Source: an uncultured virus (IMG/VR IMGVR_UViG_3300047499_000023) (Duplodnaviria > Heunggongvirae > Uroviricota > Caudoviricetes). From it: a stretch of DNA of 64,000 bases. The stretch lies in the IMG/VR virus record IMGVR_UViG_3300047499_000023. One strand, given 5' to 3'. The first letter of the stretch is position 1, and each line of letters begins with the position of its first letter. A program made the position numbers and the translations under genes. Under the pieces are notes generated by a model. That model worked only from the letters and a program-made list of their open reading frames with translations, made no database searches and was not told the DNA's origin. Positions 29,615 to 56,501 of this stretch are shown here, piece by piece.

Positions 29615-29632
29615 CTTTTGGAGGGCTGATTC

Positions 29633-29878
29633 ATGGCTGACGATACGACTGCCTCGACGACTGCAACGGCCGGCAAGACGCCCGCCAAGACCGCATCGGC
29701 CCCGGCTGCCACCCCCGCGCCGAGTGCTCCCGCGCCGTCGCCGCTCCGCGCCGGGTTCGCCATTCAGGCGCTCGCCGGGATCCTGGCCCATCAGGGCATG
29801 CACACCAATCTGCCGACGGCGGTGGATAAGGCACTCGAGGCTGCCGATCTTCTGATCGCCGGCCTCGAGCCGTCGTGA
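29633..29878 (+). CDS. small hypothetical protein
   Basis: GGAGG RBS; Ala/Pro/Thr-rich N-terminus, R..FA..AL.G.L...A...AD.L. Confidence 0.6.
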   Translation: MADDTTASTTATAGKTPAKTASAPAATPAPSAPAPSPLRAGFAIQALAGILAHQGMHTNLPTAVDKALEAADLLIAGLEPS

Positions 29879-30126
29879 GAGCCGGGGGCTACGTCGTGGC
29901 GGAAGAGAACAACCCGGACGGCAATGACGGCTCTTCTGTCACCGACCCCGGCAAGAGCTACGCGCCGGTGGACGATCAGGTGCCGGGCGGCGAGCCCGGC
30001 GCGTCTGAGTACGACCCGATCGGCATGGTGCGTTGTCGCTCGTGCGGCATGATGACGCCGGCCGACGGCACGCGTTGCGACCGCTGCAATACCCCGGTGC
30101 GCGCGAAACAGTACAACGGCCAGTAG
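29875..30126 (+). CDS. small Zn-ribbon protein
   Basis: CRSCG...CDRC. Confidence 0.5.
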   Translation: MRAGGYVVAEENNPDGNDGSSVTDPGKSYAPVDDQVPGGEPGASEYDPIGMVRCRSCGMMTPADGTRCDRCNTPVRAKQYNGQ

Positions 30127-30132
30127 CGCGCC

Positions 30133-30786
30133 ATGGATTGGCAGACACCGTTCTACTACCGGGATCCGGATGAGCTGCCGACGCCGCTCAACATCCCGAC
30201 GACGTTTCGCCAGAACGAAACGCCGAGTTGGAACGACGATGAGTACGAGGACGTAAACGGGAACATCTACCCATCGACGACCTACACGCTCACCTACTAC
30301 CTGGCCGGGCCGTCGGCGCAGCCGGTCTCGATCGTGGGCGTGCCCTCGACGACGGGCACCGCCGGCTGGACGACATCGATCACGCCGACGCAGGCGGCGC
30401 TCCTTCTGCCGGGGAAGTATTGGTGGCAGGGCGTGCTCACGGCGCCGGCCAACCCGCCCACGATCCCGACCGCCTTTCGAATGGTGGCGGGCGAGGGCGA
30501 ACTCACCGTCCAGGTCGACTATGGCGCGGTCACTGGCGTCTACGACGGACGCACAACGGCGGAGAAAGCGCTCGCAGCTTGGGAGGCGTGCTTCCTTGCG
30601 CTCGCGGGCAGCGGCGGATCGCCGGTCAAATCTTACGAAATCGCGGGCCGCAAAATGACATACAGCGATCTGGCCGAGGTCAAGAACGCGGTCGATTATT
30701 GGCGCGCGCGCGTCTCGAGCGAGAACGACCAGGCCGACGGCGGCCGCTCGCGGAAACTCCTGGTGCGGTTCTCGCATGAGCACTGA
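30133..30786 (+). CDS. head completion protein (gpW-like C-terminus with extra N-terminal domain)
   Basis: VKSYEIAGR..TY.DL.E......W at C-terminus; precedes portal. Confidence 0.75.
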   Translation: MDWQTPFYYRDPDELPTPLNIPTTFRQNETPSWNDDEYEDVNGNIYPSTTYTLTYYLAGPSAQPVSIVGVPSTTGTAGWTTSITPTQAALLLPGKYWWQGVLTAPANPPTIPTAFRMVAGEGELTVQVDYGAVTGVYDGRTTAEKALAAWEACFLALAGSGGSPVKSYEIAGRKMTYSDLAEVKNAVDYWRARVSSENDQADGGRSRKLLVRFSHEH

Positions 30787-32563
30787 GGGCTTTCATTTCG
30801 ATTCGCCGCTCTGGAAGGCGATGAGCACGACGGCCGAGCCCGCGCCGTCTGCGCCCACGCCCGCGCAACGCGTGGCGATGCCGCAAGTCGCCGGGCGCAT
30901 GTACGCCTCAGCGATTCCGAATCGCTTCAACCAGGGGTTCCCGAGCTACAACCTCTCCGCCGATGCGGAGATGGTCACGAGCCTTCGGAATCTCCGGTCG
31001 CGTTCGCGCCAGCTTATTCGCGACGCCCCGTACGCGAAGGCGGCCAAGCGCTGCATCGTAAACAACGTCATCGGCACGGGCGTCAAAATTCAGCCGGCGG
31101 TGATGACGACCCGCGACACGGCGAACGTGCGGGTGAACCGGGCGATCCGCGATGCGTTCGACATGTGGTCGCACGAGCACCGCTGCCACACGGGCGGCGA
31201 GCTCCACTTTCACGATCTCGAACGCCAGCTCATGGGGCAGGTATTCGAGGCGGGCGAAATCTTCGTCCGCATCTGGCGTCAGCCGTTCGGCGATTCGACC
31301 GTGCCCTTGGGGCTGGAGATCGTCGAGCCCGAGCGCATCGCGGACGGCTACGCGCAGCCCGCCGGCGCGCATTGGGAAAACCTGATCCGGATGGGCATCG
31401 AGGTCGATGCGTTCAAGCGCCCGGTCGCGTATTGGATCCGCGATCTGCACCCCGGCGACATCCGGCTGAACGTCGATCGCACGGACCATTTCACGCGGGT
31501 ACCGGCCTCCGACATCATCCACTTGAAGATCGTGGATCGCTGGCCGCAGACGCGCGGCGAGCCCTGGTTGCACGCGGTCGCGCAGAAGCTGGCCGACATC
31601 AACGGCTATTCGGAGGCGGAGATCATCGGCGCGCGCGGCCGCGCCTCCTACATGGGGACCATCGAGACGCCGGAATCGCCCGACGTATTCGGCCAGCGCG
31701 CCGCCGATCAGACGCTGCAGTTTGCCTTGGAGCCCGGCACCGTTCAGAAGCTGGCGCCCGGCGAGAAGTTCAACCTGCAGGCGCCCAACGCCTCGAGCCA
31801 AGGCGTCGAGCCCTTCATGCGGCTGATGCTCCGCGAAGTCGCCGCCGGCTTAGGCACGAGCTACATGGCGATCAGCGAGGACTACTCGCAGTCGAACTAC
31901 TCGAGCTCGCGCCTCGCGCTCCTGAACGAACGCGATACGTGGAAGGCGCTGCAACTCTGGTTCATCCGGAAGTTTCGCTATCGCGTGCATCGCGAGTTCA
32001 TGCAGCAGGCGGTGCTGTCGAAATCGATCCCCGAGATTTCGGTGGCCGACTACGCGGTCGACCCCGAGAAATTCGCCAAGGTCTTTTTCCGGCCGCGCGG
32101 CTGGCAGTGGATTGACCCGACCAAGGAGGTCGGCGCCTTCAAGGATGCGGAGAAGGCGGGCTACATGACCAAGGGTCAGATCATCGCGCAGACCGCCGGC
32201 GGCGATGACATCGAAGACATCCTGATGACGCGCGCGCACGAGCTCGAGTTCATGGAGGACTTAAAGCTCGTGTTCGACACGAACCCGGACGTCTACGTGC
32301 CGGCCGAATCGCGCGGCCAGGTGCTGCTCGACTCCGAAGGCGTGCCCGCTCCCGCGAGCGTGGTGGCAGCGCAAGGGCTGGCGGACGCCGGCTTGCCGCC
32401 GGCGGGCGCAGCCGGGCAGGCGCCCACCCCCGCGCAGTCTTCGGCGATGGAGAAGCCGACGAAGAAGCCCGATCTCGACGCGGATCACACCGCGGTCGAC
32501 GAAGACGAAGCCGACCGTTCGCGCATTCGATTGCGCCTGATCAACTCAATGAGAGGTAACTAG
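30776..32563 (+). CDS. portal protein, lambda family
   Basis: LR.RSR.L.R, GIE.D...RP.AYW, RG.PW, DYS..NYSSSR, W.WIDP.KE. Confidence 0.95.
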   Translation: MSTEGFHFDSPLWKAMSTTAEPAPSAPTPAQRVAMPQVAGRMYASAIPNRFNQGFPSYNLSADAEMVTSLRNLRSRSRQLIRDAPYAKAAKRCIVNNVIGTGVKIQPAVMTTRDTANVRVNRAIRDAFDMWSHEHRCHTGGELHFHDLERQLMGQVFEAGEIFVRIWRQPFGDSTVPLGLEIVEPERIADGYAQPAGAHWENLIRMGIEVDAFKRPVAYWIRDLHPGDIRLNVDRTDHFTRVPASDIIHLKIVDRWPQTRGEPWLHAVAQKLADINGYSEAEIIGARGRASYMGTIETPESPDVFGQRAADQTLQFALEPGTVQKLAPGEKFNLQAPNASSQGVEPFMRLMLREVAAGLGTSYMAISEDYSQSNYSSSRLALLNERDTWKALQLWFIRKFRYRVHREFMQQAVLSKSIPEISVADYAVDPEKFAKVFFRPRGWQWIDPTKEVGAFKDAEKAGYMTKGQIIAQTAGGDDIEDILMTRAHELEFMEDLKLVFDTNPDVYVPAESRGQVLLDSEGVPAPASVVAAQGLADAGLPPAGAAGQAPTPAQSSAMEKPTKKPDLDADHTAVDEDEADRSRIRLRLINSMRGN

Positions 32564-32565
32564 CG

Positions 32566-32958
32566 ATGGCATCCAAACTCAGTTCTCCGGCCCCGAGCAG
32601 CTTGCGCGCGTTCACGGGGGCATTGCAGAGCTCGCGGCTCGTCCCGGGACAGCAGGAGCCGCCCGTGCCGCAGGCGGCCAAGCCGACGCAACCCGCACCG
32701 CCCGCGGCCGACGTGCCGGCGCCCGCGCCGACGTTCTTCGACAAGCCGATCGCCAAGGTCGCCTTCCCCGCCCAGAAGACGGCGGTGAATCTGCAGTCGG
32801 TGTCCGAGGCCATTTCCTCGGCCAAGGTGCAGATGGGCATGGCGGAGCCGCCCATGTCGGAGCCGCGCCCGGATCGCTTCGAGGGCAAAGACCTGAAATC
32901 CGTTTCCGAGTCCATCAACGACTCGATGGAAGAGGGCGACTCGAGCGGCGAGGATTGA
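32566..32958 (+). CDS. low-complexity Pro/Ala/Ser-rich hypothetical protein
   Basis: GAGG RBS, between portal and protease. Confidence 0.55.
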   Translation: MASKLSSPAPSSLRAFTGALQSSRLVPGQQEPPVPQAAKPTQPAPPAADVPAPAPTFFDKPIAKVAFPAQKTAVNLQSVSEAISSAKVQMGMAEPPMSEPRPDRFEGKDLKSVSESINDSMEEGDSSGED

Positions 32959-33180
32959 ATGGCGCTCGCAGACGCCGAGCCGGTGCGGCTGCGCGCACTC
33001 GGCGTCTTTGCGACGCCGGATGAGGTCAACGCGATCTTGTCCTTGAGCGAAACCAACCCGTCGCAGGTGGCCGCGGCGATGAACAGCGCCGCGCGGCTCC
33101 ACGGGCTTCCCGATACGCCCGAAGGCTACGGCCTCAACGTGCAATCACGCGAGTTCATCGGCCTCGCGCACCAGGAGTAA
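32959..33180 (+). CDS. hypothetical protein
   Basis: GAGG RBS, in operon. Confidence 0.55.
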   Translation: MALADAEPVRLRALGVFATPDEVNAILSLSETNPSQVAAAMNSAARLHGLPDTPEGYGLNVQSREFIGLAHQE

Positions 33181-33190
33181 CCCCTTGAAA

Positions 33191-33382
33191 ATGGACTACG
33201 ACCCGAAAACGCGCACCGCCGTTTTCACCTACAAGAGCGGCCGCACGACGACCGTGAAGGAGATCACCGAGGCCAAGGCCAAGGAGATGCTCGAGCGCGT
33301 CATGCCGGAGTTCGAACGCCGGGACGGCTGCCTCACTTCGGTCGGCGGTGAGTTCACGCGAGACGACGGTCATGGCGGATAA
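33191..33382 (+). CDS. hypothetical protein, possibly the frameshifted N-terminus of the protease
   Basis: AGGAG RBS upstream; overlaps the protease start. Confidence 0.5.
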   Translation: MDYDPKTRTAVFTYKSGRTTTVKEITEAKAKEMLERVMPEFERRDGCLTSVGGEFTRDDGHGG

Positions 33383-35312
33383 ATCCGACAACCGTACCCG
33401 GAGCGTGTCGTTCTCCTCGGAGACGGACAAGGTCGAGCGCTGGTTCGGGACCGAGATCCTCGACCACTCGCCCAAGTCGATCCGCTCCGAGTTCATCAAG
33501 TCCGGGCGCGCGCCGTTGCTCTTGAATCACGACACCAAGTCGCAAGTGGGCGTGATCGACAAGGCGAGCTTCGACAAGCGGCAGGGCCGGGGCGATGTGC
33601 GATTCGGTCGCACGGGCGCCGCAAGCGATGCCCTGCAGAACGTCGATGACGGGATCCTCGTCAACACGTCAGTCGGCTATCGCGTCTACGAAATGGTGCT
33701 CGAGAAGCAAAGCGACGATGGCGACACCTTTCGAATCACCGACTGGGAGCCCTACGAGGTTTCCCTAGTCGCGGTGCCGGCGGATTCCACCGTCGGCGTC
33801 GGTCGCGCAAGCCGCGACGAACCTGTTCCCAGTAACGCCGGCGCCGCCGGTTCAACGTCCCAGGAGGACACAATGTCAGACGGAAACGCGGCCACGGCAG
33901 ACAGTGGCAATCAGTCTCGTGATGCCAACGGTGGCGAACAGCAGTCGCGCGCATCGGGTGGTGAGCCCAACGCGACCGCCGCCGGCGGTGCCGCAGCGGC
34001 CGCCGCGCGCCGCGGCGTGGAGATGGATGCGATCGCGATCGAGAATTCGCGCATCAAGGGCATTCAGAACCTCTGCCAGATCAATCGGATCGAGGAGCGT
34101 CTGCAGCGCCAGTGGATCACGTCGGGTCTCTCGATCGAGGGCGTGACCGAAGAGCTGCTCAAGATCATCGAGCACCGTGGCAAGGTCTCCCCGCGCCCCG
34201 TGTCGCATCTCGATTTGACGCAGAACGAAACGCAGCGCTTCTCGGTTTGCAAGGCGATCTTGGCCGCGCACACCGGCGACTGGAGCAAGGCGGGCTTTGA
34301 GGGCGAGTGCTCACGCGCGATCGCCAACAAGCTGCAGACGCATCCGGACCCGAAGAAGTTCTACGTCCCCTACGACGTGCAACAGCGCGGCATCTCCCGG
34401 GCCGATATCGCGAAACGCGACTGGGCCATGGGCGCGCGCAACGGCATGGGTGCCATGACCCGCGCCGATACGGTCGGAGCCGGCAACGCGGGCGGCTACC
34501 TGGTCGCCACCGAGCTCGTCTCGTTCATCGATCTCCTCCGCAATCGCACGGTCGCCTTCCGCATGGGTGCCCGTTCGCTCGCGGGCTTGGTCGGTAACGT
34601 GACGATCCCGAAACTCACCGGCGCTGCGACGGCGTACTGGCTGGGTTCGGAGACGACCCAGATCACCGAGGCCAACCAGGTGTTCAGCCAGTTGGCGCTC
34701 TCGCCGAAGAATGTCGGTGGCTACACCGAAATCTCCCGGCAGTTGCTCGTGCAGTCCACCCCGGACATCGAGGGCATCGTCAATTCGGATCTCGCGATCA
34801 TCACCGCCCTCGCGGTGGACCTGGGCGCGCTCTCCGGATCCGGCACGTCGGGCCAGCCGGTCGGCATCACCAACACCACCGGCATCGGTGTTGCGACCGC
34901 CGGCGACATGGCGACCATCGGGTACCAGGGCTGTCTCGACTTCCAGTATCAGGTGTGGAACGCGAACGTGATTCCGGTGCGCGGCGGTTACGCCACGAAC
35001 GGCAACGTCGCCGAGCTCCTGATGACCCGCACCAAGTTCGCGAACACCTATTCGCCCCTCTGGGACGGAACGATGTGGGACGCGGATTGCTGCGGCTTCC
35101 CCGGCATGAGCTCGAAGCAGATCGCGGCGAGCACCATGATCTTCGGCGACTGGGATCAACTCCTGATCGCAGAGTGGGGCGTGCTCGAGCTCGAGGTCAA
35201 CCCGTACGCCAACTTCCAGGCCGGGATCATCGGCGTGCGCTCGTTCATGACGTGCGATGTCGGTCTCCGGTACCCGGGAGCGTTCTGCCAGAACGGCGCC
35301 ACGATCACCTAA
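33372..35312 (+). CDS. prohead protease (U35-like) fused to HK97-fold major capsid protein
   Basis: SFSSE...EILDH, PLL.NHD, SVGYRV, WEPYEVSLV.VPAD; then GGYLV, A.W..E, FGDW..L capsid motifs. Confidence 0.92.
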   Translation: MADKSDNRTRSVSFSSETDKVERWFGTEILDHSPKSIRSEFIKSGRAPLLLNHDTKSQVGVIDKASFDKRQGRGDVRFGRTGAASDALQNVDDGILVNTSVGYRVYEMVLEKQSDDGDTFRITDWEPYEVSLVAVPADSTVGVGRASRDEPVPSNAGAAGSTSQEDTMSDGNAATADSGNQSRDANGGEQQSRASGGEPNATAAGGAAAAAARRGVEMDAIAIENSRIKGIQNLCQINRIEERLQRQWITSGLSIEGVTEELLKIIEHRGKVSPRPVSHLDLTQNETQRFSVCKAILAAHTGDWSKAGFEGECSRAIANKLQTHPDPKKFYVPYDVQQRGISRADIAKRDWAMGARNGMGAMTRADTVGAGNAGGYLVATELVSFIDLLRNRTVAFRMGARSLAGLVGNVTIPKLTGAATAYWLGSETTQITEANQVFSQLALSPKNVGGYTEISRQLLVQSTPDIEGIVNSDLAIITALAVDLGALSGSGTSGQPVGITNTTGIGVATAGDMATIGYQGCLDFQYQVWNANVIPVRGGYATNGNVAELLMTRTKFANTYSPLWDGTMWDADCCGFPGMSSKQIAASTMIFGDWDQLLIAEWGVLELEVNPYANFQAGIIGVRSFMTCDVGLRYPGAFCQNGATIT

Positions 35313-35371
35313 CAAGGGCGAATCGCGGTCGACGGTCACTGGTTCAAATCATTTTCAGAGGAATTGGAACA

Positions 35372-35725
35372 ATGGAAAGCACGTATTTCATCAAGGCGAC
35401 GGAAGGGTTTTTCGTTCGTGGTCGGGGGCCCGCAGGGGCCTCCGGCATCGTGAACCCCGGCGAAACCGTCTCGGTGTCCAAGAGCGAAGCGATGGACATC
35501 ACGGCGGCCAATCGCGGCGTCAAGATCGAGCAGCGCGAATTCGAGGCGGGTCCCAAAGCGGACTTCATCCCGAAGGATGCCGAGGGCAAGCCGATCCCGG
35601 CCGTCACCATGACCCGCGCGCAGATGCACGCGGCCGCCCGCGCGCAGATGGCTCGATTGAACGAAGCCAACACCGCGGCCTTGGCGCCTCCGCAGCGTTC
35701 GGGCAAGGAGTCGCGCGCCGCTTAA
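35372..35725 (+). CDS. hypothetical head-associated protein
   Basis: GAGG RBS; PGE.V.V...EA motif; follows the capsid gene. Confidence 0.6.
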   Translation: MESTYFIKATEGFFVRGRGPAGASGIVNPGETVSVSKSEAMDITAANRGVKIEQREFEAGPKADFIPKDAEGKPIPAVTMTRAQMHAAARAQMARLNEANTAALAPPQRSGKESRAA

Positions 35726-35782
35726 GGCGCGCCTTTCCGCACCGCAACGCCCACCCCACTCTTCACAGAAGGAACTTCTCCC

Positions 35783-36217
35783 ATGTTAGATGCAGCACAG
35801 GGTTCATCCATCCTCTCTGCCTTGGTCGGGGGCCCCTCGGGGACCCTGCAGTTCGGCAACCTGCTCGATGCGCAGACGATCACGGCCACCGCCGCGACGC
35901 CCAGCGGCAACTGGCTCGATACGGCCCAGTACGAGGGCTATCTCCTGTTTCTGGTCGCGCTCGGTGTGCTCACCGGCTCGGCCACGGTGCAGGTGCAACT
36001 CCAATCGTCCGCGGCGAAGACGGGTGCGAGCCCGGTCTCCGGCGGCGCGAGCGCGCAGTTCCCGCAGGTATCGTTCGGCAACACCGCGGGCCCGCAGGCG
36101 CTCCTGTTGCCCACCACGTTCTTCGCGAATCGATACGTCGGCGCCTCCGCGGTCGTATCGGGCACCGGCAACGTGCCGATCGCGATCTACGCGCTGGGCG
36201 GTCTGCGCAGCCCGTAA
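35783..36217 (+). CDS. putative capsid decoration protein
   Basis: Beta-rich, DT..Y.G..F....G...V.LQ.S...RYV pattern. Confidence 0.6.
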   Translation: MLDAAQGSSILSALVGGPSGTLQFGNLLDAQTITATAATPSGNWLDTAQYEGYLLFLVALGVLTGSATVQVQLQSSAAKTGASPVSGGASAQFPQVSFGNTAGPQALLLPTTFFANRYVGASAVVSGTGNVPIAIYALGGLRSP

Positions 36218-36230
36218 GAGTCCATTCGCT

Positions 36231-36575
36231 TTGTTCGTCGAAAATACGGCGGCGTTCCTCGCGGACTTTCCCGTGCCCGCGAGTTACGCCGCCGCCGGCG
36301 GCTGGTCGCTCGATGGACTGGCGACGCTCGATTCATCGAACACACTCGATGGCGGCGGCCGCGTCATTACGGGCGTCGTTTTTTTCGATGAGCCCGATCG
36401 GGAGATTTTGAACAATCGGGCGATATCGTCCGACTACACGATCACGTATCGCACGCTCGACTTCCCGGGTCTGGTGTCGGGCGATGAGATCACTGTCAAC
36501 GGCACGCTGTACGTCGTGCTCCACGCCATGAAGATCGAAGACGGCGTGTTCTCTCGCGCCATCCTGGAGCTCTAA
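36231..36575 (+). CDS. head-tail joining protein (FII-like)
   Basis: TTG start MFVE...FL.DF; FDEP...L..GD.I.V.G..Y.V.....DG.F....L. Confidence 0.7.
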   Translation: MFVENTAAFLADFPVPASYAAAGGWSLDGLATLDSSNTLDGGGRVITGVVFFDEPDREILNNRAISSDYTITYRTLDFPGLVSGDEITVNGTLYVVLHAMKIEDGVFSRAILEL

Positions 36576-37016
36576 ATGCCCACCGCCAGCGTCAGCGAAC
36601 AGATCATGGCGTATCTGGCGACGCAGCTTTCGAGCGCCGCAGGCTTCACGTTCTATCGCGAACGCGAAACGCCGGTGGCCCGGCAGGAGGGCCTCACGGG
36701 CATCCTGGACGAAGACGAGGAGGAGACCGCCTATCAAGCCACGGGGCTGATTCTCCGGACGTTCTATGCGCGCGTCACCATCATCGCTCGCGCGAGCGAG
36801 GCGGCGCCGATCGCCGCCACCCTGGCCGATGCAGCGCGGGTCACGGTCTATGCCGCGATCATGAAGGATCAAACCTTGGGAGGCCTCGCCGGCGTCGTCA
36901 CGGATGAGGGAACCAAATGGCTCAAGGAGGAGGCGGACCGCAATGCCGTCAGCCTCGAGATGCGCTTTCGCATCCGCTACGCCACGAAGATCAACGATTT
37001 GACCCAGGTGGTTTAA
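36576..37016 (+). CDS. tail terminator (gpU-like)
   Basis: EQI...L...L, YR.R, AIM.D.TLGGL, F.IRY.T...DL. Confidence 0.7.
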   Translation: MPTASVSEQIMAYLATQLSSAAGFTFYRERETPVARQEGLTGILDEDEEETAYQATGLILRTFYARVTIIARASEAAPIAATLADAARVTVYAAIMKDQTLGGLAGVVTDEGTKWLKEEADRNAVSLEMRFRIRYATKINDLTQVV

Positions 37017-37577
37017 GTGTCGCAAATCCCCCTCGACAACCCGACGCGCGGCACGACCACGCTCCTCGCGCAATGCGTGAACTCGAGCGGCACGGTGGTC
37101 GGCACCACGAGCTCCCAGCTCGCCGACGGCACCACGTTGGGCGACGGCACCGGGGATCTTGCCTTCAACCTCGGCCGGAAGTTGAAGCAATGGGGCGCCG
37201 ACGTGAACACCATGACCAGCTTGATGCTGGGCAACTATCTCGCGGTGGCACCGGCGGCGAGTCAGAACAATTGGGACCCCACCGGCGGATCACCGGGAAA
37301 CCTCGCGGCGATCTCGCGCCTCGATTTGAATCCGTCGCAGTCGATCGACATCACGGGCCTGATCGCCACCGACATCGCCGACGAAAAGCGGATCACCGTG
37401 CGCAACGTGAGCCAGCTTTATACGGTGACGTTGCAACACCAGAACGTCGCGTCCGCGGCCGCGAATCAGTTTTACGGCCCGGGCTTGGACGACTTCATTC
37501 TCAACCCGGGCATGGCCGTCGACATCATCTATTACCTGATCCCGAGCGGCCCGACCTACTGGGTCATCAAGCCTTGA
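37017..37577 (+). CDS. fibre/decoration-like protein with DGTGD motif
   Basis: GDGTGDLAF..G.KL; C-terminal domain shared with the next gene. Confidence 0.65.
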   Translation: MSQIPLDNPTRGTTTLLAQCVNSSGTVVGTTSSQLADGTTLGDGTGDLAFNLGRKLKQWGADVNTMTSLMLGNYLAVAPAASQNNWDPTGGSPGNLAAISRLDLNPSQSIDITGLIATDIADEKRITVRNVSQLYTVTLQHQNVASAAANQFYGPGLDDFILNPGMAVDIIYYLIPSGPTYWVIKP

Positions 37578-37634
37578 AACCCCGAGTGACCTAAGAACGT
37601 GCTGCTCATATTCAGCGCTCATGGAGCCTCCGCA

Positions 37635-38600
37635 ATGACAACGACAGCCTTTAATCCGATCGCCATCGGATCTACGGTCAACGATGGCACGGGCGATGAG
37701 CCGCGGGCTGGCTTCACGAAGATCAAATCGGATCACTCGAATCTCTTGGCGTCCGTCGCGCGTCGGCAGACGTTGCCGGGCACGTTCGGCGTGACCTCGA
37801 GCGCGGGGTCGACCACCGTGCTCAACGACACGACGCAGGCCTGGGCGACCAATCAATTCGCCGGCCAGACGTTGACGATTCTGACGGGCACGCTCGCGGG
37901 CGTCTCCGAGCCGATCGCGAGCAACACGGCGAACTCGATCACGGTATCGAGCGCGTTCGGAAGCGCGATCGGGTCGGGCGTCGGGTATCAGGTATCGCCG
38001 GCGATCCTGACCGCGGGCTCCGATGGGTTTGCGACGACCGCCGGCGGCACGGGCCCGTCGACGCTGGTCGATGCCAACCAGGCCTGGACCACGAACGAAT
38101 GGGCGGGCCAGGGCGTGACGCTCCTCGCCGGCGCGTTCGCAGGCCAGACGAGCCCCATCGTGTCGAACACCGCCACCGCGTTGACGCTGTCGATCAACTT
38201 CGCGTCGGCGATCGCCGCCGGGACTCCCTACGCGATCGGGCCGTTGCCGGTCATCAATAACTTTTCGAGCACGGTCTCCGCATCGCTCGCGGCGGCGCAG
38301 AACAATTACTCCCCGACCGGCTGGGGCCCGGGCATTGATCGGCTGAAGATCACCCCGACGGCCGCGGGCGTGCAGCTCTCCGGATTGCTCGCCACCGGGA
38401 TCGCCGACGGCGCGCAGGTGCTCCTGCGGAACACCGACGCGACGAACACCTACAACCTCACGCTGCTGCATGAGTCTGGGAGCTCGAGCGCGGCGAATCA
38501 GTTTCAACTTCCGGGCGCAGCATCCTTTGTGCTGCCGCCTTTCGCGGGCTGCATGCTCGTCTACGACTTGGCTTCCACTGCATGGACGGTACTGTCATGA
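37635..38600 (+). CDS. fibre-like protein with T4 gp9/gp10-type N-terminal motif and two internal repeats
   Basis: IAIGSTVNDGTGDEPRAGFTKIK; two D..QAW.TN..AG....L.G..AG....I.SNTA..L repeats. Confidence 0.75.
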   Translation: MTTTAFNPIAIGSTVNDGTGDEPRAGFTKIKSDHSNLLASVARRQTLPGTFGVTSSAGSTTVLNDTTQAWATNQFAGQTLTILTGTLAGVSEPIASNTANSITVSSAFGSAIGSGVGYQVSPAILTAGSDGFATTAGGTGPSTLVDANQAWTTNEWAGQGVTLLAGAFAGQTSPIVSNTATALTLSINFASAIAAGTPYAIGPLPVINNFSSTVSASLAAAQNNYSPTGWGPGIDRLKITPTAAGVQLSGLLATGIADGAQVLLRNTDATNTYNLTLLHESGSSSAANQFQLPGAASFVLPPFAGCMLVYDLASTAWTVLS

Positions 38601-39688
38601 AGAAACTTCTCGCTGCCCTCGTAGGGTTTCTGCCGGCGCTCGCCTTCGCGCAGAGCTTCGGTGTGTTCCAACCCGGAGGCGATCTCGCCGGCGCGGGCTC
38701 GACTTGGAACAATCAGGTCATCGCCCCGGGAGCCGTGACCCTTGCCAAGCAAGCGACCGTCGTCGGCAACGTGTCGGGCACGCCGACGCCGGCGATCATC
38801 GGGAACAACACGTCGACCGCCGCGACGCCCGCGGCGCTCGCGCCTTTGCAGGTTGCGAACGTCCTGTCGGCGGTTCTTAGCGTCAACAATGTCTGCATCG
38901 GCACCTGCCTCACCGCCTTCTCGGGCGTGACCATCACTGGCACGACGCTCCCGAGCGGACTGACGACCGCCGTCGATGGCACCACCTTGAGCGCGGGTCA
39001 GACGGTGTTGATCACCGGCTATACGACCAATGCCTATCTCAACGGCATTTACATCGCGGGTACCGGAACCTGGACTCGCGCTGTGAACTTCATCGGATCG
39101 ATTGCGGCCAATTGCGACGTGGCGGTCATCGTCCGCAACGGAACGACCTATCAGGGTCACATGTTCAAATTGGGCACGGGCAGCGCGATCACGATCGGCA
39201 CGACGGCGCAGGTTTGGTCGGATGCCCCGATTGCGTCGGCCACCAACACGACGTTTGGAACGGTGAAGGTATCGGCCACCGGCAATACCACGGTCGCTTC
39301 GACCGGAGGCGTGGCCGCGGTCAATGACTGTGTTTCGTTCGGAGACACGAACGGCTCCATTACCGACTACGGCGACGCCTTGGACACCACGGGCCCTTGC
39401 ATCGTCGGCGATGCGCACGGGCATGTCGTATTCGATGTGGGGCCGCCGAGCGTTTCGGGCAGCGGCTGCTCGCTCACAAGCGGTGGCCGGGACTCAACCG
39501 GCTCCGTCGTCGCGACGGGCGCCGACACCTGCACCGTCACGTTCTCGGGCGCCTTCGCCATCGCGCCCAACTGCACGGCCACCGGCGTCGGCGCGACCGT
39601 CATCCCCTATTTGAACGCGCTGCCGACCACCACCGCAGCCGTGTTCAAAACGACCGCTGCCGGCACGTTCACTTACCACTGCCTCTAA
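38597..39688 (+). CDS. signal-peptide-bearing tail-fibre-like protein
   Basis: MKKLLAALVGFLPALAFA-Q; VDG.TL..G..VL......NGIY.....WTRA fibre motif; several Cys. Confidence 0.75.
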   Translation: MKKLLAALVGFLPALAFAQSFGVFQPGGDLAGAGSTWNNQVIAPGAVTLAKQATVVGNVSGTPTPAIIGNNTSTAATPAALAPLQVANVLSAVLSVNNVCIGTCLTAFSGVTITGTTLPSGLTTAVDGTTLSAGQTVLITGYTTNAYLNGIYIAGTGTWTRAVNFIGSIAANCDVAVIVRNGTTYQGHMFKLGTGSAITIGTTAQVWSDAPIASATNTTFGTVKVSATGNTTVASTGGVAAVNDCVSFGDTNGSITDYGDALDTTGPCIVGDAHGHVVFDVGPPSVSGSGCSLTSGGRDSTGSVVATGADTCTVTFSGAFAIAPNCTATGVGATVIPYLNALPTTTAAVFKTTAAGTFTYHCL

Positions 39689-39692
39689 CATC

Positions 39693-40985
39693 ATGCGAAA
39701 GATCGGGCTCTTACTCGCGCTGCTGGGCGCGAGCGTCGCCGCGTGGGCGACCAATCCGCCGAGCATTCTTAACAACACCGACCACATTTCGAATCCAGCT
39801 TCCTCCTCGAGCGTCACGGCTGCGCTGACGGCGCTGGGGATCACCTGGACCGGAACGCCGAGCTCGAGCGTGCTGACGGTCAGTCAGACATGCCCGACAG
39901 GCACGACCGCCGGCGTGAGTTGTTTTGCCCCGGGCGGCCCCACCTTTCTGCCGCCGGCGACGATCATCGCCAACGCGCAAAATCTGTCGACCAGCGAATA
40001 TGCGCCGGGCAGCGCGACCTCGGTCACTCCGCTCACGCCGTACTACCTGATCAATCAGTCCTCGACCGGGTATCAGGCGAGCTACGACCAGGCGAACTAC
40101 CCCGCGCTGGTCGCCGGGTCCATGGCCTACTCGATGGCCTACTGCGGCTTTCCCCTGGCCGGCGATCAGCCGCCTGTCGCGTTCGTGACCGCACTCCCCA
40201 ACCAGGGCGTGGGCCCGACGCCCATCCCGAGCAACGTGGGCGGCGTTCTCGGAAGCAATTGCGGCTATGCGCAGGGGATCGAGTTCAGCGTCCCGACAAC
40301 CTGCAGCGCGACCGACTGCCAATTCGCCTTCAATTCGAGCATCGAAGCGGGCTCCCCGTCCGCCACCGAAGAAGGCGTCACGGCGATCCTCGCGGCGTTG
40401 AAGTCCGCAAACCCGACTTGGACCTGGGGAGACATCAAGGGCGCGCTGCGGCAGACGGCGAGCAATTGGGCAACCGGATATGCCGTCACAACCGGCAGCG
40501 GCTCGTCCGTCGCGTTCGGCTACGGCAACATCAGCTACTCGAGCGCCGCGGCGATCTCCGGCACGAGCTCGATCTACCTCCAGCCGCCGAGCGTGCATCT
40601 GGCGAATGCGGGCGCCTTCGCGCAGATCATCGTCTACCCGTTCCTGCAGACGAGGCGCACGTCCGAAGTCATCTACGCGTTCACATCGGCGCCGACCTGG
40701 CCGTCGTACACGACGGGTTGCAGCAGCGGCCCTTGCAACGAGTACACGTACTCGCAGCTCGCGGCGATCGCGAGCAGCTACGGCGGCACGCGCATCGCGC
40801 AGACCTCGGGCGGCGTGACCCCGACGTTTATCTATTACCCGCCCTCGAGCGGCACCTATTACTTCGTCGTCTTCACGACCGATGCCACGGGCGCGCTGGG
40901 CGGCTCTGAGCACTACTCGCGCGGCGAACTGTTCTCCGCGCAATCGGCGGCGCTGACCGTTTCGACATCTTGCGTTAGGCAATAA
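39693..40985 (+). CDS. secreted Cys-rich protein with a degenerate subtilase (S8)-like segment
   Basis: MRKIGLLLALLGASVAAWA signal; AILAALKSANPTWTWGDIKGALRQTA...FGYGNI. Confidence 0.65.
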   Translation: MRKIGLLLALLGASVAAWATNPPSILNNTDHISNPASSSSVTAALTALGITWTGTPSSSVLTVSQTCPTGTTAGVSCFAPGGPTFLPPATIIANAQNLSTSEYAPGSATSVTPLTPYYLINQSSTGYQASYDQANYPALVAGSMAYSMAYCGFPLAGDQPPVAFVTALPNQGVGPTPIPSNVGGVLGSNCGYAQGIEFSVPTTCSATDCQFAFNSSIEAGSPSATEEGVTAILAALKSANPTWTWGDIKGALRQTASNWATGYAVTTGSGSSVAFGYGNISYSSAAAISGTSSIYLQPPSVHLANAGAFAQIIVYPFLQTRRTSEVIYAFTSAPTWPSYTTGCSSGPCNEYTYSQLAAIASSYGGTRIAQTSGGVTPTFIYYPPSSGTYYFVVFTTDATGALGGSEHYSRGELFSAQSAALTVSTSCVRQ

Positions 40986-40994
40986 GGGGCGGCC

Positions 40995-42446
40995 ATGGGA
41001 TGGACTTTCGACGGCTCACTGCCGACGTTCGATCACGGCGCGGGCTACACCTTCGACGGCTCCTCGAGCTCCGGCGCGCCCGTCATCACCGCGAACCCAT
41101 CGAATGCGAGCGTGACGGCGCCCGCCACCGCGACGTTCACGGCGAACGCCACGGGCTACACGTCCGTCCAGTGGCAGACCGATTCGGGATCTAGCGGCAC
41201 GACCTGGTCGAACATCTCCGGGGCCACGTCGACGAGCTACACGACGGGCGCGACCAGCGCGCTCACGAACGGCTGGCAGTATCGCGCCGTCTTCACGAAC
41301 GGATCGGGATCCACCGATACGCTCGATGCGACGCTGACCGTTACGTCGGTGCCGATCGTCATCGTCAACCCGCTGAGTCAAGTCATTCAGACGGGCTCGA
41401 CGGCAACGCTCTCGTCGGTGGCCGACGGCTACCCGGTGCCCACCGTGCAATGGCAAACCGACTCAGGCACGGGCGGCGTGACCTGGTCGAACATCTCGGG
41501 CGCTACCTCGAGCACCTACGTCACCGGCGTCCTCACCAGCGCAGAAAACGGCTGGGAGTATCGCGCCGTTTTCACCAATACCCAGGGCAGCGCCACGTCC
41601 GCGGCGGCGACGCTCGCGGTTGTCTCGATCATTTCCACAGGAGTAAAACCCATGCAGTTCGTATTTGGTCCGGGCAACCTGATCGTCACCCCGCTCACGG
41701 ATGCCTACGGAAACACCATCAGCCCGACCACGCCCCGGAAGCTAGGAGCGTTCCAGGAGGCGTCGTTCGATACCTCCTCCGAGAACAAAATGCTCTACGG
41801 GCCCAACCAGTTCCCGCTCGCGGTCGGCCGCGGCAAGGCGAAGGTGGGCTTGAAGGTCAAGGCCGCGCAGTTCTCGATCGATCAGTGGAACGCGATCTAT
41901 ATCGGCCAGCCAGTCAATCAGACCGCCGGCATCATCGCGGCCTACGTCGATGCCGTCGGCAGCACGATCCCGGCGACCCCGTACCAGATCACGCCGGTCA
42001 CGACCTACGCGTCCTACCTCACCGGCACGTCGCCCGCGTTCGACTACGACCTCGGCGTCGCTGACGGCTCCGGCAACGCCTACAAGGCCGTCACGGGCAC
42101 GCCCACCACGGGCCAGTATGCGGTGGCAGGCGGCGTCTATACGTTCGCGGCCGCCGATACCGGCAAGACGGTGTTCATCTCGTTTGCGTACACCGCGACC
42201 AACGCGGCCGGCGCGAAGAACGCGTACGTGAACATCAACAACTTGCCCATGGGCCAGGCGCCGTTCCTGCAGGTCGATCTCTCCTGCGTGTACGGCGGCA
42301 ACCAGCTCTTCGTGACGCTGTTCCAGGCGATCGCGAGCAAGCTGTCCTTCGCGACCAAGCTCGACGACTTCGCGATCCCCGATCTCGAGTTCGACGGCTT
42401 CGCCAACTCGGCCAACGTCGCCTATCGCATCGCCGCGGGACAGTAA
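40995..42446 (+). CDS. major tail (tube) protein with two N-terminal Ig-like domains; nested start at 41652
   Basis: Two P.I..NP...WQTDSG..W.NISGAT..Y...NGW.YRAVFTN Ig repeats; then MQFVFG.G...FPLAVGRGK...K.DDF.IP tube domain; precedes chaperone and tape measure. Confidence 0.85.
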   Translation: MGWTFDGSLPTFDHGAGYTFDGSSSSGAPVITANPSNASVTAPATATFTANATGYTSVQWQTDSGSSGTTWSNISGATSTSYTTGATSALTNGWQYRAVFTNGSGSTDTLDATLTVTSVPIVIVNPLSQVIQTGSTATLSSVADGYPVPTVQWQTDSGTGGVTWSNISGATSSTYVTGVLTSAENGWEYRAVFTNTQGSATSAAATLAVVSIISTGVKPMQFVFGPGNLIVTPLTDAYGNTISPTTPRKLGAFQEASFDTSSENKMLYGPNQFPLAVGRGKAKVGLKVKAAQFSIDQWNAIYIGQPVNQTAGIIAAYVDAVGSTIPATPYQITPVTTYASYLTGTSPAFDYDLGVADGSGNAYKAVTGTPTTGQYAVAGGVYTFAAADTGKTVFISFAYTATNAAGAKNAYVNINNLPMGQAPFLQVDLSCVYGGNQLFVTLFQAIASKLSFATKLDDFAIPDLEFDGFANSANVAYRIAAGQ

Positions 42447-42452
42447 AACGCC

Positions 42453-42797
42453 ATGATCGAAGCCAACGAAGAATTGTGGGAAGGGGAAGAGATCACGCTG
42501 CGCGGGCGGAAGTACATCCTGCCGCCGCTCAACTTTGCAGGCCTTGCGAAGTTCCGAAAGCGCTTGAACAGCGTGGCCGAGCTCGACGCCGACGCGCAGG
42601 CCGAGCTCTTTTTCGAAATCGTGCTCTGGTGTTTCCATCGTAACTATCCGTCCATGACGATGGCTGATTTGAAGGAGATGGCGGACCTTAAAAACTTCGG
42701 ACGCATGCGCGACATCGCGCTGCAGACCTCGCGATTCTCGAAGGTCGGGGGATCGACAGTCCCGGGAAAAGAGGCGGCGGATCTCCCACAGATTTAA
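42453..42797 (+). CDS. tail assembly chaperone (gpG-like)
   Basis: Between tube and tape measure; Y.LPPL.F, RNYP motifs; slippery site near the 3' end. Confidence 0.8.
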   Translation: MIEANEELWEGEEITLRGRKYILPPLNFAGLAKFRKRLNSVAELDADAQAELFFEIVLWCFHRNYPSMTMADLKEMADLKNFGRMRDIALQTSRFSKVGGSTVPGKEAADLPQI

Positions 42798-43042
42798 ACG
42801 ACTTGCTGTTTTTCCTGGTGCTATCGACCGGGCACACGTTAAGCCAGATCAAAATCGAGTGGGACTTTCCGCGTCTGGAACGATGGATTGAATACTGCGA
42901 AAAGCACCCGCCGCTGCAGGCCATGATCGCCGCCTATCTCGGCGTGGGCGACGCCAGGAAGGCGGGCCAGATGCGTCTCACGGAAGAGAATTTCGAGAGC
43001 TTTATTTCGATGTTGAATGCCGAATCCAAGCTGACCGGCTGA
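42764..43042 (+). CDS. -1 frameshift extension (gpT-like) of the chaperone
   Basis: G GGA AAA heptamer at 42764-42770 in the correct phase; -1 frame is open to 43042. Confidence 0.85.
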   Translation, partial: GKRGGGSPTDLNDLLFFLVLSTGHTLSQIKIEWDFPRLERWIEYCEKHPPLQAMIAAYLGVGDARKAGQMRLTEENFESFISMLNAESKLTG

Positions 43043-43064
43043 CGGGTAGGGAGCGCGCGCGATC

Positions 43065-45398
43065 ATGGCGAACGATGTAAAGCTAGACATCACCGGCGAT
43101 CCGTCGGGTCTAGCGGCCGCGCTCGAGGAGGCGAAGACCAAGGTGGTCGAAGCCTCGAGCGAGATGCGCGAATCGCTCGAGACCATCAACGAGTCGTTCA
43201 ACAAGATCAACGAGACTATCGTTGCGTTCACCGCGGTCCTCGCGGGCGCCGGCGCCTTTGGCGAGATCATCGCCTCGACGACCAATCTCAACTTCCAGTC
43301 GATGGAGTTGGGCAAGCAATTCGGCATCTCGGCGACGCAGGCCTCCGTTCTGAAAGAGGCGCTCAACCAGACCTTTCTCACGCAGGATCAATTCTCGGCC
43401 GCCGGCGCGCGCCTGACGCGCACGCTCTCGACCAACGAAGTGGCCGTGCGGGACTTGGGCGTTGAGACGCGCGAGGCCTCCGGCGGCTTCCGGCCGCTCG
43501 TCGACATCATGACCGATGTCAACGAGAAGCTCCTCGAGATGAAAGAGGGCGCCGATCGTAACGTCGAGGGCACCAAGGTCTACGGCCGCGGCTGGTCGCA
43601 GGTGATCGACATCCTGCGGCTCACCAAGGAGTCGATGGCGGAGGCCGATCAGGGCGCCACCGAACTGAATCTCAAGGTGTCGCAGGAGAGCCTCGCCGCC
43701 ACGCTCAAGTACAAGTCCGCCGTCGTCGAGATGAACGAGACGCTCGAGGCGGTCCGGAACACGATTGGCCTTGCGCTCCTGCCGGCGCTCACGGATGCGG
43801 CCAACTGGTTTAGGTCCACGGGCCCGGCGGCGATCGCCAACACCCGCGAGGCGATCCGCGGCATCGTCACCGTCTTCGCCGTCCTCCGGAACGAGCTCAA
43901 GGACGAGGTCGATTTCATCGTCGGCGAGTTCGTCTCGCTCGTGACCGAGATCGAGGGCGACGCCAAGGCGATCAACAAGGCGCTGCATTTCGATTGGGCG
44001 GGCGTCACCGCCGAGCTCAAGGAAAAGACCGACGAGCAAAAGGCGATCTACGCGCAGTACCAGGACGACCTGGTCGCCAACAAGAAGCAGGCGAACGACC
44101 TGATCGCCTCGCTCGATGCGAACTTCTCGAACCAGAACACGCCCACCGCGGCGCCCGGGGGTGGCGAGGGCGCCGACCCGGCCAAGGGGAAGGACGACAG
44201 CCGGAAGCTCCTGGACGAACGACTCGCGCTGCTCGAGAAGGAATTCCGGGCCGACGCCGAGTACGTCGACAAGATGCGCGAGGCCCAGGAGCAGGCCTAC
44301 AAGGCGGAGGAGGCCGCGTTCTCCAAAGCGGCGAGCCAGCGCATCGCGATCGCAGAGCAGGAGGTCGCGCTCGAGGCGGCCGCCTACGGCAAAGGATCGC
44401 CCCAGTACGAGGCCGCCCAAAAGCATCTCGTCGAGGTTCAGCAGCAGGCGCAGGAGCAGCTCCGTCAGATGGCGGACGCCTTTGCGAAGGTCGAGGACGA
44501 GCGTCAGCAGCAATCGCTCGCCGAAGACGAGAAGATCCTGCAGGAGAAATTCCAGCGGCACGAGATCAGCAACGCGCAGCTCCTCGCGGGCGAGATCGCG
44601 CTCGAGGACAAGCGGGCAGCGCTCGCGCTCAAGGCGGCCGAAGAACAGAAGGCGTTGATCGACCCGCTGCACGACCCGGTCGCGTACGCCAAGATCCTCG
44701 CGGACATCGAATCGCTGGAACTGCAGCACGACAACCGCATTTCGCAGATCCGGAAGGAAGCTGCGCAGCGCGATCGACAGGTGTGGGACTCCTTGAACAA
44801 GGAGATCCAGAGCGGCTTCGCATCGAACATCACGAAGCTGGTTGAGGGCACCGAGACGTTCAGCCAGGCGATGCGAAACCTGCTGAAAGACGTGCTCAAT
44901 TCCATCATCCAATTCCTTGCGCAGTGGGTGGTGCAACACGCGGCGACGATGCTCGCGAACCTGGTGCAGACCAAGGTCACGGCCCTCGGGCAAATTCAGG
45001 CGAATGCCGGTGTCGCCGGCGCCGCCGGCGTCGCATCGTTCGCGGGCGCGCCCTGGCCCCTGGACGTGGGCGCCCCGGCGTTCGGCGCCGAGGCCGCGTC
45101 CGCTGCCGCGAGTTTCTCGACCCTGTCCGCCGAAGGCGGGTACGACATCCCGCGCGGCATCAATCCTCGAGTGCAATTGCACGAAGAGGAAATGGTGTTG
45201 CCGTCGCCCATCTCCAAGGGGCTCCGCAACCTCATTGCCGCGAACGATGGGGGCGGCCGGGGAAGCCGCGGCGGCGCGGGCGATACCAACATCAGCGTCA
45301 GCGCCATGGACTCGAAGTCCGTCGAACGTGCGCTCAGGGGCAACAATGGCCCGCTGCACAAGGCGATGCGGGACCTCAATCGGCGTAAGGCGAGATGA
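43065..45398 (+). CDS. tape measure protein
   Basis: 777 aa Ala/Glu-rich helical protein; C-terminal SAEGGYDIP...LH..EMVLP. Confidence 0.9.
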   Translation: MANDVKLDITGDPSGLAAALEEAKTKVVEASSEMRESLETINESFNKINETIVAFTAVLAGAGAFGEIIASTTNLNFQSMELGKQFGISATQASVLKEALNQTFLTQDQFSAAGARLTRTLSTNEVAVRDLGVETREASGGFRPLVDIMTDVNEKLLEMKEGADRNVEGTKVYGRGWSQVIDILRLTKESMAEADQGATELNLKVSQESLAATLKYKSAVVEMNETLEAVRNTIGLALLPALTDAANWFRSTGPAAIANTREAIRGIVTVFAVLRNELKDEVDFIVGEFVSLVTEIEGDAKAINKALHFDWAGVTAELKEKTDEQKAIYAQYQDDLVANKKQANDLIASLDANFSNQNTPTAAPGGGEGADPAKGKDDSRKLLDERLALLEKEFRADAEYVDKMREAQEQAYKAEEAAFSKAASQRIAIAEQEVALEAAAYGKGSPQYEAAQKHLVEVQQQAQEQLRQMADAFAKVEDERQQQSLAEDEKILQEKFQRHEISNAQLLAGEIALEDKRAALALKAAEEQKALIDPLHDPVAYAKILADIESLELQHDNRISQIRKEAAQRDRQVWDSLNKEIQSGFASNITKLVEGTETFSQAMRNLLKDVLNSIIQFLAQWVVQHAATMLANLVQTKVTALGQIQANAGVAGAAGVASFAGAPWPLDVGAPAFGAEAASAAASFSTLSAEGGYDIPRGINPRVQLHEEEMVLPSPISKGLRNLIAANDGGGRGSRGGAGDTNISVSAMDSKSVERALRGNNGPLHKAMRDLNRRKAR

Positions 45399-56498: not shown

Positions 56499-56501
56499 CC
56501 C

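Follow-up and report, generated by a model that had tools for sequence, protein, structure and literature searches.

The assembly of tailed virions is considered to take place entirely in the cytoplasm. Among the tailed-phage proteins that use host Sec are lom of lambda and cor of phi80 and N15, morons that act as envelope proteins or receptor decoys, and leader-bearing morons are known in tail regions. Lom and cor are outer-membrane proteins with no fibre or decoration domain. Phage endolysins are also exported by host Sec (PMC6116005) and, in the available part of that source, are lysis enzymes with no such domain. Bdellovibrio has MAT fibres (PMC10769870), which resemble phage fibres, bear signal peptides and in some cases include a protease or chaperone domain; the available part of the source describes them as adhesins of the cell surface whose in-chain domain is S74 and not S8, and not as virion parts. 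In Cellulophaga phage phi18:3 (KC821620), the proteins gp085, gp086 and gp087 carry Sec-type leaders by the rule used in this study and are structural by MS/MS proteomics according to the available GenBank notes; they could have co-purified with the virions. Decoration proteins are able to bind mature capsids in vitro (PMC7602432).

Here, a window of 64,000 nucleotides (the whole stretch analysed, from the uncultured virus IMGVR_UViG_3300047499_000023) was studied for two adjacent tail-operon genes, SP1 and SP2. Their predicted products are an exported short fibre or decoration protein (363 aa, nine cysteines) and an exported compact subtilase-fold protein with a C-terminal beta-sandwich (430 aa, nine cysteines). 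Like the phi18:3 proteins, both bear Sec-type leaders, but gp085 to gp087 have 0-3 cysteines and no subtilase partner was seen for them. A tblastn search of phi18:3 with SP1 and SP2 gave no match. SP1 differs from lom, cor and the endolysins by its fibre/decoration domain, and the MAT fibres differ from both proteins in the properties given above. A sequence-only reading of this DNA had proposed export and disulfide folding in the periplasm, followed by attachment to virions or release as soluble helpers. Export and oxidative folding are strongly supported here; the subtilase fold of SP2 and the unpaired cysteines had been overlooked.

Organization of the locus

The phage is a moss-associated prophage in which two adjacent virus-particle genes carry ordinary bacterial export signals. 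Its tRNA-Arg, a gene too conserved for host assignment, is 96-97% identical to those of two Steroidobacteraceae genomes. Contigs from four DNA runs span the stretch without single-letter differences.

All features described lie on the plus strand. The left landmark is the tail terminator (36576..37016; PHROG 4204, E 1.8e-17) and the right one an Ig-Ig-tail tube ORF (40995..42446; Pfam Ig matches; PHROG 8234 and 3995) that probably has another start at 41652; an RBS-led internal Met is also present in the related loci L002 and L003. SP1 (38597..39688) and SP2 (39693..40985) are located between these landmarks, as previously noted, but two leaderless genes separate the terminator from SP1. The first (37017..37577, no leader by our rule) has an equivalent position in L002 and L003. 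The second, fibre-like gene (37635..38600) has a 4-base stop/start overlap with SP1, adjoins it upstream in L002 and L003 too, and gives weak matches to the N-terminus of T4 gp9/10 (E 0.015) and to PHROG 958 (E 0.023). The two products have a common C-terminal domain (39% over 108 aa), and both are candidates for a virion-side dock.

The suggested synteny in tail operons was found in L002 and L003, where the order terminator, accessory genes, SP1, SP2 and tube is kept. SP1 and SP2 are 3-6 bases apart in this arrangement; in the window the gap is 4 bases, followed by 9 bases between SP2 and the tube ORF, and these distances together with the overlap leave no space for a promoter or terminator. 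A consensus scan of the plus strand between 26000 and 45000, which may miss non-sigma-70 promoters, gave no promoter-like sites. Composition is core-like, with GC3 values of 0.82 (SP1) and 0.85 (SP2) and codon indices of 0.63 and 0.64 within the late-gene range of 0.59-0.74. The dN/dS ratios (0.13 for SP1 against L002, 0.18 for SP2) indicate purifying selection as in the neighbouring genes. SP1 and SP2 are tightly coupled late genes, and the own promoter and terminator, foreign composition and sporadic position that mark morons were not found for either.

Export signals

Leaders were called with a home-made n/h/c-region rule and not with SignalP; the rule called 2 of 1092 internal windows falsely and one of 14 core virion genes (the hub, at threshold). 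Sec-type signal peptides were called for SP1 (residues 1-18, 38597..38650) and SP2 (residues 1-19, 39693..39749), each with the basic n-region, hydrophobic h-region and A-x-A site of Sec (SPase I) substrates. The rule places the cuts after residues 18 and 19 and reproduces the mature N-termini QSFGVF and TNPPSI given before. The leaders, on whose conservation the earlier proposal depended, are kept by 24 of 27 homologs of SP1 and by 33 of 48 of SP2; among the 15 exceptions in the SP2 set, seven begin within the mature part and eight have a hydrophobic leader by eye. Export of SP1 and SP2 by host Sec is almost certain on these grounds.

The reported richness in cysteine was also confirmed: the mature proteins together contain 18 cysteines in 756 residues (2.4%) versus 50 in 5674 (0.9%) for the core genes (p=2e-4), and the leaderless accessory genes contain 14 in 2911. 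Since the leaders are conserved and gain of cysteine tracks gain of the leader within the same domain, export with oxidative folding is strongly supported.

SP1 as a putative fibre protein

The N-terminal repeat region of SP1 (38651..38851) is DUF5907-like in relatives, with PF19264 matches at E<=0.1 in 6 of 23 family members and none in SP1 itself; it is probably a fibre shaft. It is followed by a decoration/fibre domain (38858..39241) common to leaderless virion proteins of cultured phages. The tail-fibre motif seen earlier in SP1 is real, with matches to PHROG 2647 (E 1.3e-11), 24595 and 11518 and, in a profile search, to PDB 9NX3_A (E 7e-14); a single-sequence PDB search with SP1 gave no match. 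The domain, of about 125 residues, is shared with the 'Capsid decoration protein' of 9NX3, a stretch of which has nearly the same sequence as the end of gp231 of Bixzunavirus HyRo, and with PHROG 2647 (head decoration / P2-type tail fibre H, Ralstonia phage RsoM1USA). Via the homolog P0009 it was found in 91 phage records. In cultured phages it occurs in leaderless virion proteins, with no domain cysteine in 7 of 7 examined. The 9NX3 and PHROG 2647 proteins, unlike SP1, are leaderless, have a cysteine-free domain and 0-2 cysteines overall, and lack a disulfide-rich tip. The SP1 clade therefore departs from the leaderless cytoplasmic synthesis of decoration and fibre proteins.

The C-terminal tip (39314..39685) contains six cysteines that probably form three intrachain pairs, C245-C268, C291-C312 and C326-C362, conserved in 23/23, 23/23, 19/23, 19/23, 22/23 and 22/23 members in this order. 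No virion-attachment module was recognised in SP1 with Pfam and PHROG, and the decoration/fibre domain may not be the docking part, because it sits inside longer fibres in cultured phages.

SP2 as a compact subtilase-like protein

The subtilase-like domain of SP2 (39750..40568) was linked with an HH probability of 99.8% to a sister family, A4, which in turn matches subtilisin BPN' (E 4e-9); by this profile chain the fold and motif order are subtilisin-like. As in subtilases (PF00082, subtilisin BPN', cucumisin), the fold extends from the His helix as far as the C-terminus, and Ser and His occupy the catalytic positions. The Asp, His and Ser positions correspond to Asn28 (39774), His31 (39783) and Ser223 (40359), with the His and Asp mapping routed through A4, since direct alignment (hhalign) of the profile A3 with two full subtilases is reliable for the C-terminal half only. 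Ser is present in 90 of 90 family members and His in 79 (with four gaps), whereas the Asp position is Asn in 64 and Asp in 7; Asp30, present in 36 of the 90 by alignment, might substitute. SP2 further differs from subtilases in the spacing between the Asp position and His (about 3 versus about 32 residues), in the loss of the oxyanion-hole Asn (Cys or Gly at the aligned site), in the lack of an I9 propeptide, the mature chain beginning 8 residues before Asn28, and in a lone C-terminal cysteine. Its PF00082 score of 15.8 bits is under the gathering cut-off of 21.8, and 19 of 90 members match at E<=0.1. A low-confidence Atlas model of SP2 gave TM values of 0.40-0.53 against S8. On balance, SP2 is probably a catalytically active serine hydrolase of an atypical kind, with Asn-His-Ser as its site and no propeptide. 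It represents a family of minimal subtilases that has not been catalogued and that comprises at least 86 clusters at 50% identity.

The C-terminal domain (40578..40973) matches CHB_HEX_C_1 at E<=0.1 in 9 of 90 members, and the Atlas feature neighbours of SP2 are S8+fn3/Big proteins with scores <0.9, weak evidence that this domain is probably Ig/Fn3-like. A C-terminal membrane-anchored sorting tag was ruled out, as no membrane helix follows C427.

Unpaired cysteines and distribution of homologs

The close cysteine pairs emphasised in the sequence-only reading (CIGTC, CSATDC, CSSGPC) are present but lineage-specific, with C100 and C104 of SP1 found in 4/23 and 2/23 members and C204, C209, C343 and C348 of SP2 in 4/40, 17/40, 6/40 and 6/40. 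The conserved signal is rather one unpaired cysteine per protein, and both proteins have an odd total. In SP1 this is C173 (39113..39115; 22/23 family members), which is found in 32 of the 34 relatives that bear a leader and in 6 of the 108 that do not; all 32 carriers of C173 and a leader have an odd count. In SP2 it is the lone C-terminal C427 (40971..40973): family members with this cysteine have an odd count in 53 of 56 cases and those without it an even count in 22 of 34, figures that include related sequences, so that p-values from such parity statistics overstate the support. The lone cysteine is present in 6 of 6 distinct phage or phage-like SP2 loci, and distinct complete cellular copies have an even count in 4 of 5. 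Nine SP2 homologs lie on a contig equal in length to that of an SP1 homolog, a proxy for co-location that was confirmed directly for L002 and L003 only; all nine have the C-terminal cysteine, and none of the 21 homologs that lack it has such a match. A naturally occurring fusion protein, made up of a leader, the SP1 domain and SP2, has both lone cysteines and an even mature count. From the co-occurrence and the fusion a disulfide between SP1 C173 and SP2 C427, made in the periplasm, is predicted and is considered fairly likely.

Genome contigs gave no match to profile A1 and two Steroidobacteraceae loci with the wider profile A3. Viral searches with P0009 and P0054 gave no further loci, and the cultured phage records no match to SP2 or its leaderless relative P0170. 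Cellular EPS/exosortase loci contain SP2 homologs as well, which implies that the protein works without a virion.

Proposed assembly route and alternative explanations

In the favoured reading, host Sec would export SP1 and SP2 as late-operon products during lytic growth, their paired cysteines would form intrachain disulfides in the periplasm, and the leftover C173 and C427 would join SP1, a short fibre based on a decoration/fibre domain of virions, to SP2, a propeptide-less compact subtilase. The complex would reach finished particles at lysis and dock, most likely via the leaderless upstream genes, and the virion would then bear an enzyme directed at a host protein or EPS surface layer. Attachment to virions at or after lysis is made plausible by the domain homology and the one cultured precedent, phi18:3, and is itself rather probable, whereas the route as a whole is tentative, just short of an even call. 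More doubtful still, if possible, is the full picture of a covalent fibre and enzyme appendage prebuilt in a second, oxidising compartment, its virion-borne S8 enzyme an active propeptide-free minimal Asn-His-Ser subtilase, which hosts would repeatedly capture into EPS loci with loss of the tether cysteine. The literature covered, mostly outside subscription journals, contained no description of such an export-then-docking route for tailed phages and nothing relevant on a virion subtilase, 9NX3, a Bxz1 structure or lom/cor. If exported, disulfide-bonded parts do join at lysis, fragile or toxic host-attacking enzymes could be carried without cytoplasmic exposure, and many proteins of uncultured soil phages now classed as morons would be virion parts. 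With C173 and C427, the locus allows a precise test on two residues that does not depend on a phage in culture.

SP1 and SP2 could instead be exported and disulfide-linked but leave the cell at lysis in soluble form, unbound to particles, and help by clearing matrix or surface proteins. This would fit the lack of a recognised attachment module in SP1, the cellular copies in EPS/exosortase loci and the leader-bearing lyase-domain proteins of some flavophages (PMC8776804); it is unlikely given the virion domain of SP1, its place among neck and tail genes, and the leaderless sister subtilases in virion gene regions of 4 of 5 contigs.

Homodimers would yield an identical cysteine parity, so parity alone also fits exported, virion-bound proteins whose lone cysteines pair in homodimers or with other partners and not with each other. 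In L019 (record 76% complete), an SP2 homolog with the lone cysteine has no SP1 match and adjoins a different leader-bearing fibre with one cysteine, and the upstream fibre piece in L018 has an even count. The fusion and the 9/9 co-occurrence favour the hetero pair, and three equal cysteines could not all pair within a trimer, if a trimer is assumed; this reading, with both proteins on the virion and no SP1-SP2 link, is quite unlikely.

SP2 might also be a periplasmic maturation enzyme or chaperone that binds or trims SP1 and other exported fibres and stays behind. Its Ser is invariant and its His nearly so, a leader-bearing fibre-like gene precedes SP2 in the window, L002, L003, L018 and L019, and fibre-linked proteases and chaperones (S74) are known from the available part of PMC10769870. 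This role is very improbable: the SP2 homolog in L015 is next to head genes, no fibre gene neighbours the cellular copies, and the frequent fusion of leaderless relatives to long tails is consistent with a displayed module.

That SP1 and SP2 are ordinary morons, lysogen-expressed envelope proteins or receptor decoys of the lom/cor kind lodged in the tail operon, a possibility already raised in the sequence-only reading, is very unlikely even though leader-bearing morons occur in tail regions and some Steroidobacteraceae carry SP2 homologs as cellular genes, because the genes are coupled, keep their position, have core-like GC3 and codon use and no plus-strand promoter-like site, and cellular copies of SP2 are uncommon (found in 1 of the 301 genomes searched in the family) and fall within phage-type sequences at three or more points of a tentative tree.

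Signal peptides and cysteine content of SP1 and SP2

SP1, a short fibre or decoration protein (38597-39688, 363 aa), and SP2, a compact subtilase-fold protein (39693-40985, 430 aa), were both called as carrying a Sec-type signal peptide (leader) by a home-made rule, not SignalP, with cuts after residues 18 and 19, respectively. The same rule was positive in 2 of 1092 internal windows and in one of 14 core genes, namely the hub, at threshold. Leaders by this rule are kept in 24 of 27 SP1 homologs and 33 of 48 SP2 homologs; more remote relatives of SP2 have one in 53 of 72 cases. Cysteine is enriched in the two proteins (18/756 residues vs 50/5674 in core genes). Both the leaders and the many cysteines proposed in the sequence-only reading were recovered; the close cysteine pairs that it had pointed out lie in lineage-specific loops, and its placement of the genes between tail terminator and tail tube holds with two leaderless genes intervening between the terminator and SP1. 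Export and disulfide formation of SP1 and SP2 are predicted with near certainty.

SP1 domain and its unpaired cysteine

Residues about 88-215 of SP1 match PHROG 2647 (head decoration, E 1e-11) as well as PHROG 24595 and 11518 (tail fibre). The SP1 family profile matched the PDB entry 9NX3, named capsid decoration protein (E 7e-14), which was not found by the single-sequence search of PDB with SP1. The domain is present in 91 phage records, reached via the homolog P0009; unlike in SP1, it is Cys-free in the seven phage proteins examined, which have 0-2 Cys overall and are leaderless in all six cases with a readable start.

For position 173, 142 domain-bearing proteins were aligned, one search contributing 120 of 137 matches. 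Among the matches listed, a cysteine at or beside this position was found in 32/34 leader-bearing vs 6/108 leaderless proteins, three of the latter six being SP1-family members whose leader was missed by the rule. C173 is assigned as the unpaired residue of SP1, because the mature cysteine count is odd in all 32 leader-bearing proteins with this cysteine among the matches listed, and even in the single close homolog with Ser at 173. The six C-terminal cysteines of SP1 are conserved in apparent pairs. In an unrelated phage (L010:5654-7675), a leader stands ahead of a tail-fibre adapter-type domain (PHROG 1640, 6518, 5662).

Proposed cysteine link between SP1 and SP2

Within the SP2 family (n=90, with kinship inflating the counts), the cysteine count is odd in 53/56 members with a Cys among their final 8 residues and even in 22/34 of the others; in five members the terminal cysteine is the sole one. 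It occurs in 6/6 distinct phage or phage-like loci (the window, L002, L003, L015, L018 and L019), of which L018, with 3 kb, is phage-like only. Among the distinct complete cellular copies (L012, L013, L017, L021, L022) the count is even in four of five, the exception being L017. Cellular copies are rare (1/301 family genomes searched); in a FastTree tree without root test they branch at three or more points among phage-type sequences. Those of L012, L017 and L021 adjoin exosortase or XrtA/PEP-CTERM-type EPS export genes and are possibly a captured phage enzyme.

Same-contig assignment of SP1 and SP2 homologs was by exact size match, a proxy, with adjacency confirmed directly for two of the nine matched pairs (L002, L003). 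An SP1 homolog was matched to 9/27 SP2 homologs with terminal Cys vs 0/21 without, and on contigs of 2.5 kb or more to 9/18 vs 0/18. Moreover, a natural fusion, seen in two cluster members of separate origin, combines a leader and an SP1 domain with the C173 equivalent with a whole SP2 unit with terminal cysteine, and its mature cysteine count is even. Counting against a link, the SP2 homolog of L019 has no SP1 match, though a leader-bearing fibre-like gene with a single cysteine lies upstream. A disulfide between the lone cysteines of SP1 and SP2 is the moderately favoured prediction. Alternatively, the lone cysteines may form homodimers.

SP2 as a probable minimal subtilase

SP2 matches Pfam S8 weakly (E 0.009), and its family profiles reach PDB subtilases at E 0.001-1.8. 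An Atlas structure search returned S8 clusters in 10/10 rows, the model being of low confidence. A representative search with the family yielded 130 proteins, 86 at E<=1e-30, including a mostly leaderless sister group, A4, which is linked to the SP2 family by an alignment of 99.8% HH probability and matches subtilisin BPN' at E 4e-9. Through this chain, Ser223 (90/90) is assigned as the predicted catalytic serine and His31 (79/90) as the histidine. Where the aspartate is expected, SP2 has Asn28 (family Asn 64, Asp 7; n=90); the oxyanion Asn is lost, a few residues remain of the Asp-His segment, which is long in subtilases, and a propeptide is missing. SP2 thus departs from the subtilases in Asp, oxyanion hole and Pfam score, and would work like a minimal subtilase. 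Since the serine is invariant at about 30% identity, retained chemistry is argued for, and an active enzyme is predicted by a narrow preference.

Leaderless minimal subtilases, with Asp, His and Ser mostly kept, are also encoded among the virion genes of other phages (L020:9635-10444, L023:7971-8993, L024:8001-9353, L027:7611-10067), with no match among cultured phage records. In P0121, P0122, P0129, P0131, P0134 and P0142-P0149 the unit is N-terminal in large exported proteins whose other domains are NHL, beta-helix, Fn3 or peptidoglycan-binding, the Asp often being kept.

Late-operon membership

The start of SP1 overlaps the stop of the upstream gene; the gaps from SP1 to SP2 and from SP2 to the tube ORF are 4 and 9 bases, respectively. 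A scan of 26000-45000 gave a single promoter-like site, located on the minus strand; terminator-like sites, one of them within SP1, are as frequent as expected by chance (13 vs 13.7). GC3 and codon index resemble late genes. The order terminator, accessory genes, SP1, SP2, tube, for which a synteny check had been suggested, recurs in L002 (78% identity) and L003 (44-55%), L001 being the same phage as the window. Against L002, dN/dS is 0.13 for SP1 and 0.18 for SP2 (neighbours 0.09-0.25). Lambda lom and cor are the moron comparison. That SP1 and SP2 are ordinary morons, the alternative named in the earlier reading, is disfavoured by the tight spacing, the lack of a plus-strand promoter-like site in 26000-45000, the late-type composition and the conserved order; late expression is very probable.

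Directly after SP2, at the same position in L002:4876-5382 and L003:11270-11674, lies a PHROG 3758 virion structural protein, with a leader in the L002 copy; the L003 copy is leaderless and begins at the equivalent mature position. The tail tube ORF of the window (40995-42446) carries two Ig domains at its N-terminus and contains an internal Met, at 41652, that is preceded by a strong RBS; L002 and L003 share this layout, which probably gives a tube form that includes the Ig domains and another that lacks them.

Probable virion attachment

Attachment of SP1 and SP2 to the virion is judged the likelier outcome because of the SP1 domain, the operon position and the A4 subtilases, whose leaderless members lie in virion gene regions in 4/5 contigs. 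Counting against attachment, no docking module was recognised in SP1, and cellular SP2 copies work without a particle. In the Cellulophaga phage phi18:3 (KC821620), gp085-087 are structural by MS/MS annotation and have leaders by the home-made rule, by which nine other MS-annotated proteins in the regions examined have none. Mature capsids can be bound by decoration proteins in vitro, according to a review (PMC7602432) in whose text signal, disulfide and periplasm do not occur. Export, SP1-SP2 link and attachment taken together have slightly less than an even chance, and if the particle is also to carry an active enzyme the model becomes rather doubtful.

The SP1/SP2 locus is a real feature, and its parts are variations on known kinds. 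Sec-exported endolysins (PMC6116005), MAT fibres (PMC10769870) and flavophage lyase proteins with leaders (PMC8776804) have been described; the portion of PMC3556154 seen has no relevant content. A literature search at the level of listings turned up no account of exported parts in tailed virions, nor of a subtilase belonging to a virion. Should attachment be borne out, the export-then-attach route would be new.

Prophage setting

The window, which spans bases 1-64000 of a virus record 64,648 bases long, is a complete-looking temperate prophage with an integrase-like ORF (1089-2075, read from sequence). A tRNA-Arg(ACG) lies at the left end (about 53-130), and its 3' end is repeated exactly over 46 bases at the right end (contig 64522-64567); the two are the predicted attL/attR of an integrated prophage. 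In the late operon, genes for a lambda-type terminase, portal and capsid come first, followed by tail terminator, tube, tape measure and Dit/hub/NlpC/tip genes, with a lysozyme at the end. Moss metagenome runs contain window DNA, and among named cellular organisms with SP2 homologs Steroidobacteraceae are the nearest.

By eye, a ParB-like gene and then an ATPase/acetyltransferase-like ORF (25447-27218) directly precede the small terminase. A GDSL esterase-like gene outside the late operon (19242-20588) resembles in its N-terminal 65 residues a repeat of the fibre-like gene 37635 (E 2e-4). On either side of the lysozyme are two small lipoprotein-like genes with leaders (51531-51869, 53453-53902), probably with lysis or exclusion roles, the latter matching Cor weakly at its N-terminus (E 0.013). 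Leaderless fibre- or Fn3-like genes, poor in Lys/Arg, are clustered downstream of the lysis cassette (55500-61034); a homolog of gene 60507 is contained in the terminator-SP1 interval of L003. A third large leader-bearing protein (61279-63756, 825 aa, 6 Cys), with a CHB_HEX_C/Fn3-associated domain, is encoded 3' of the lysis genes.
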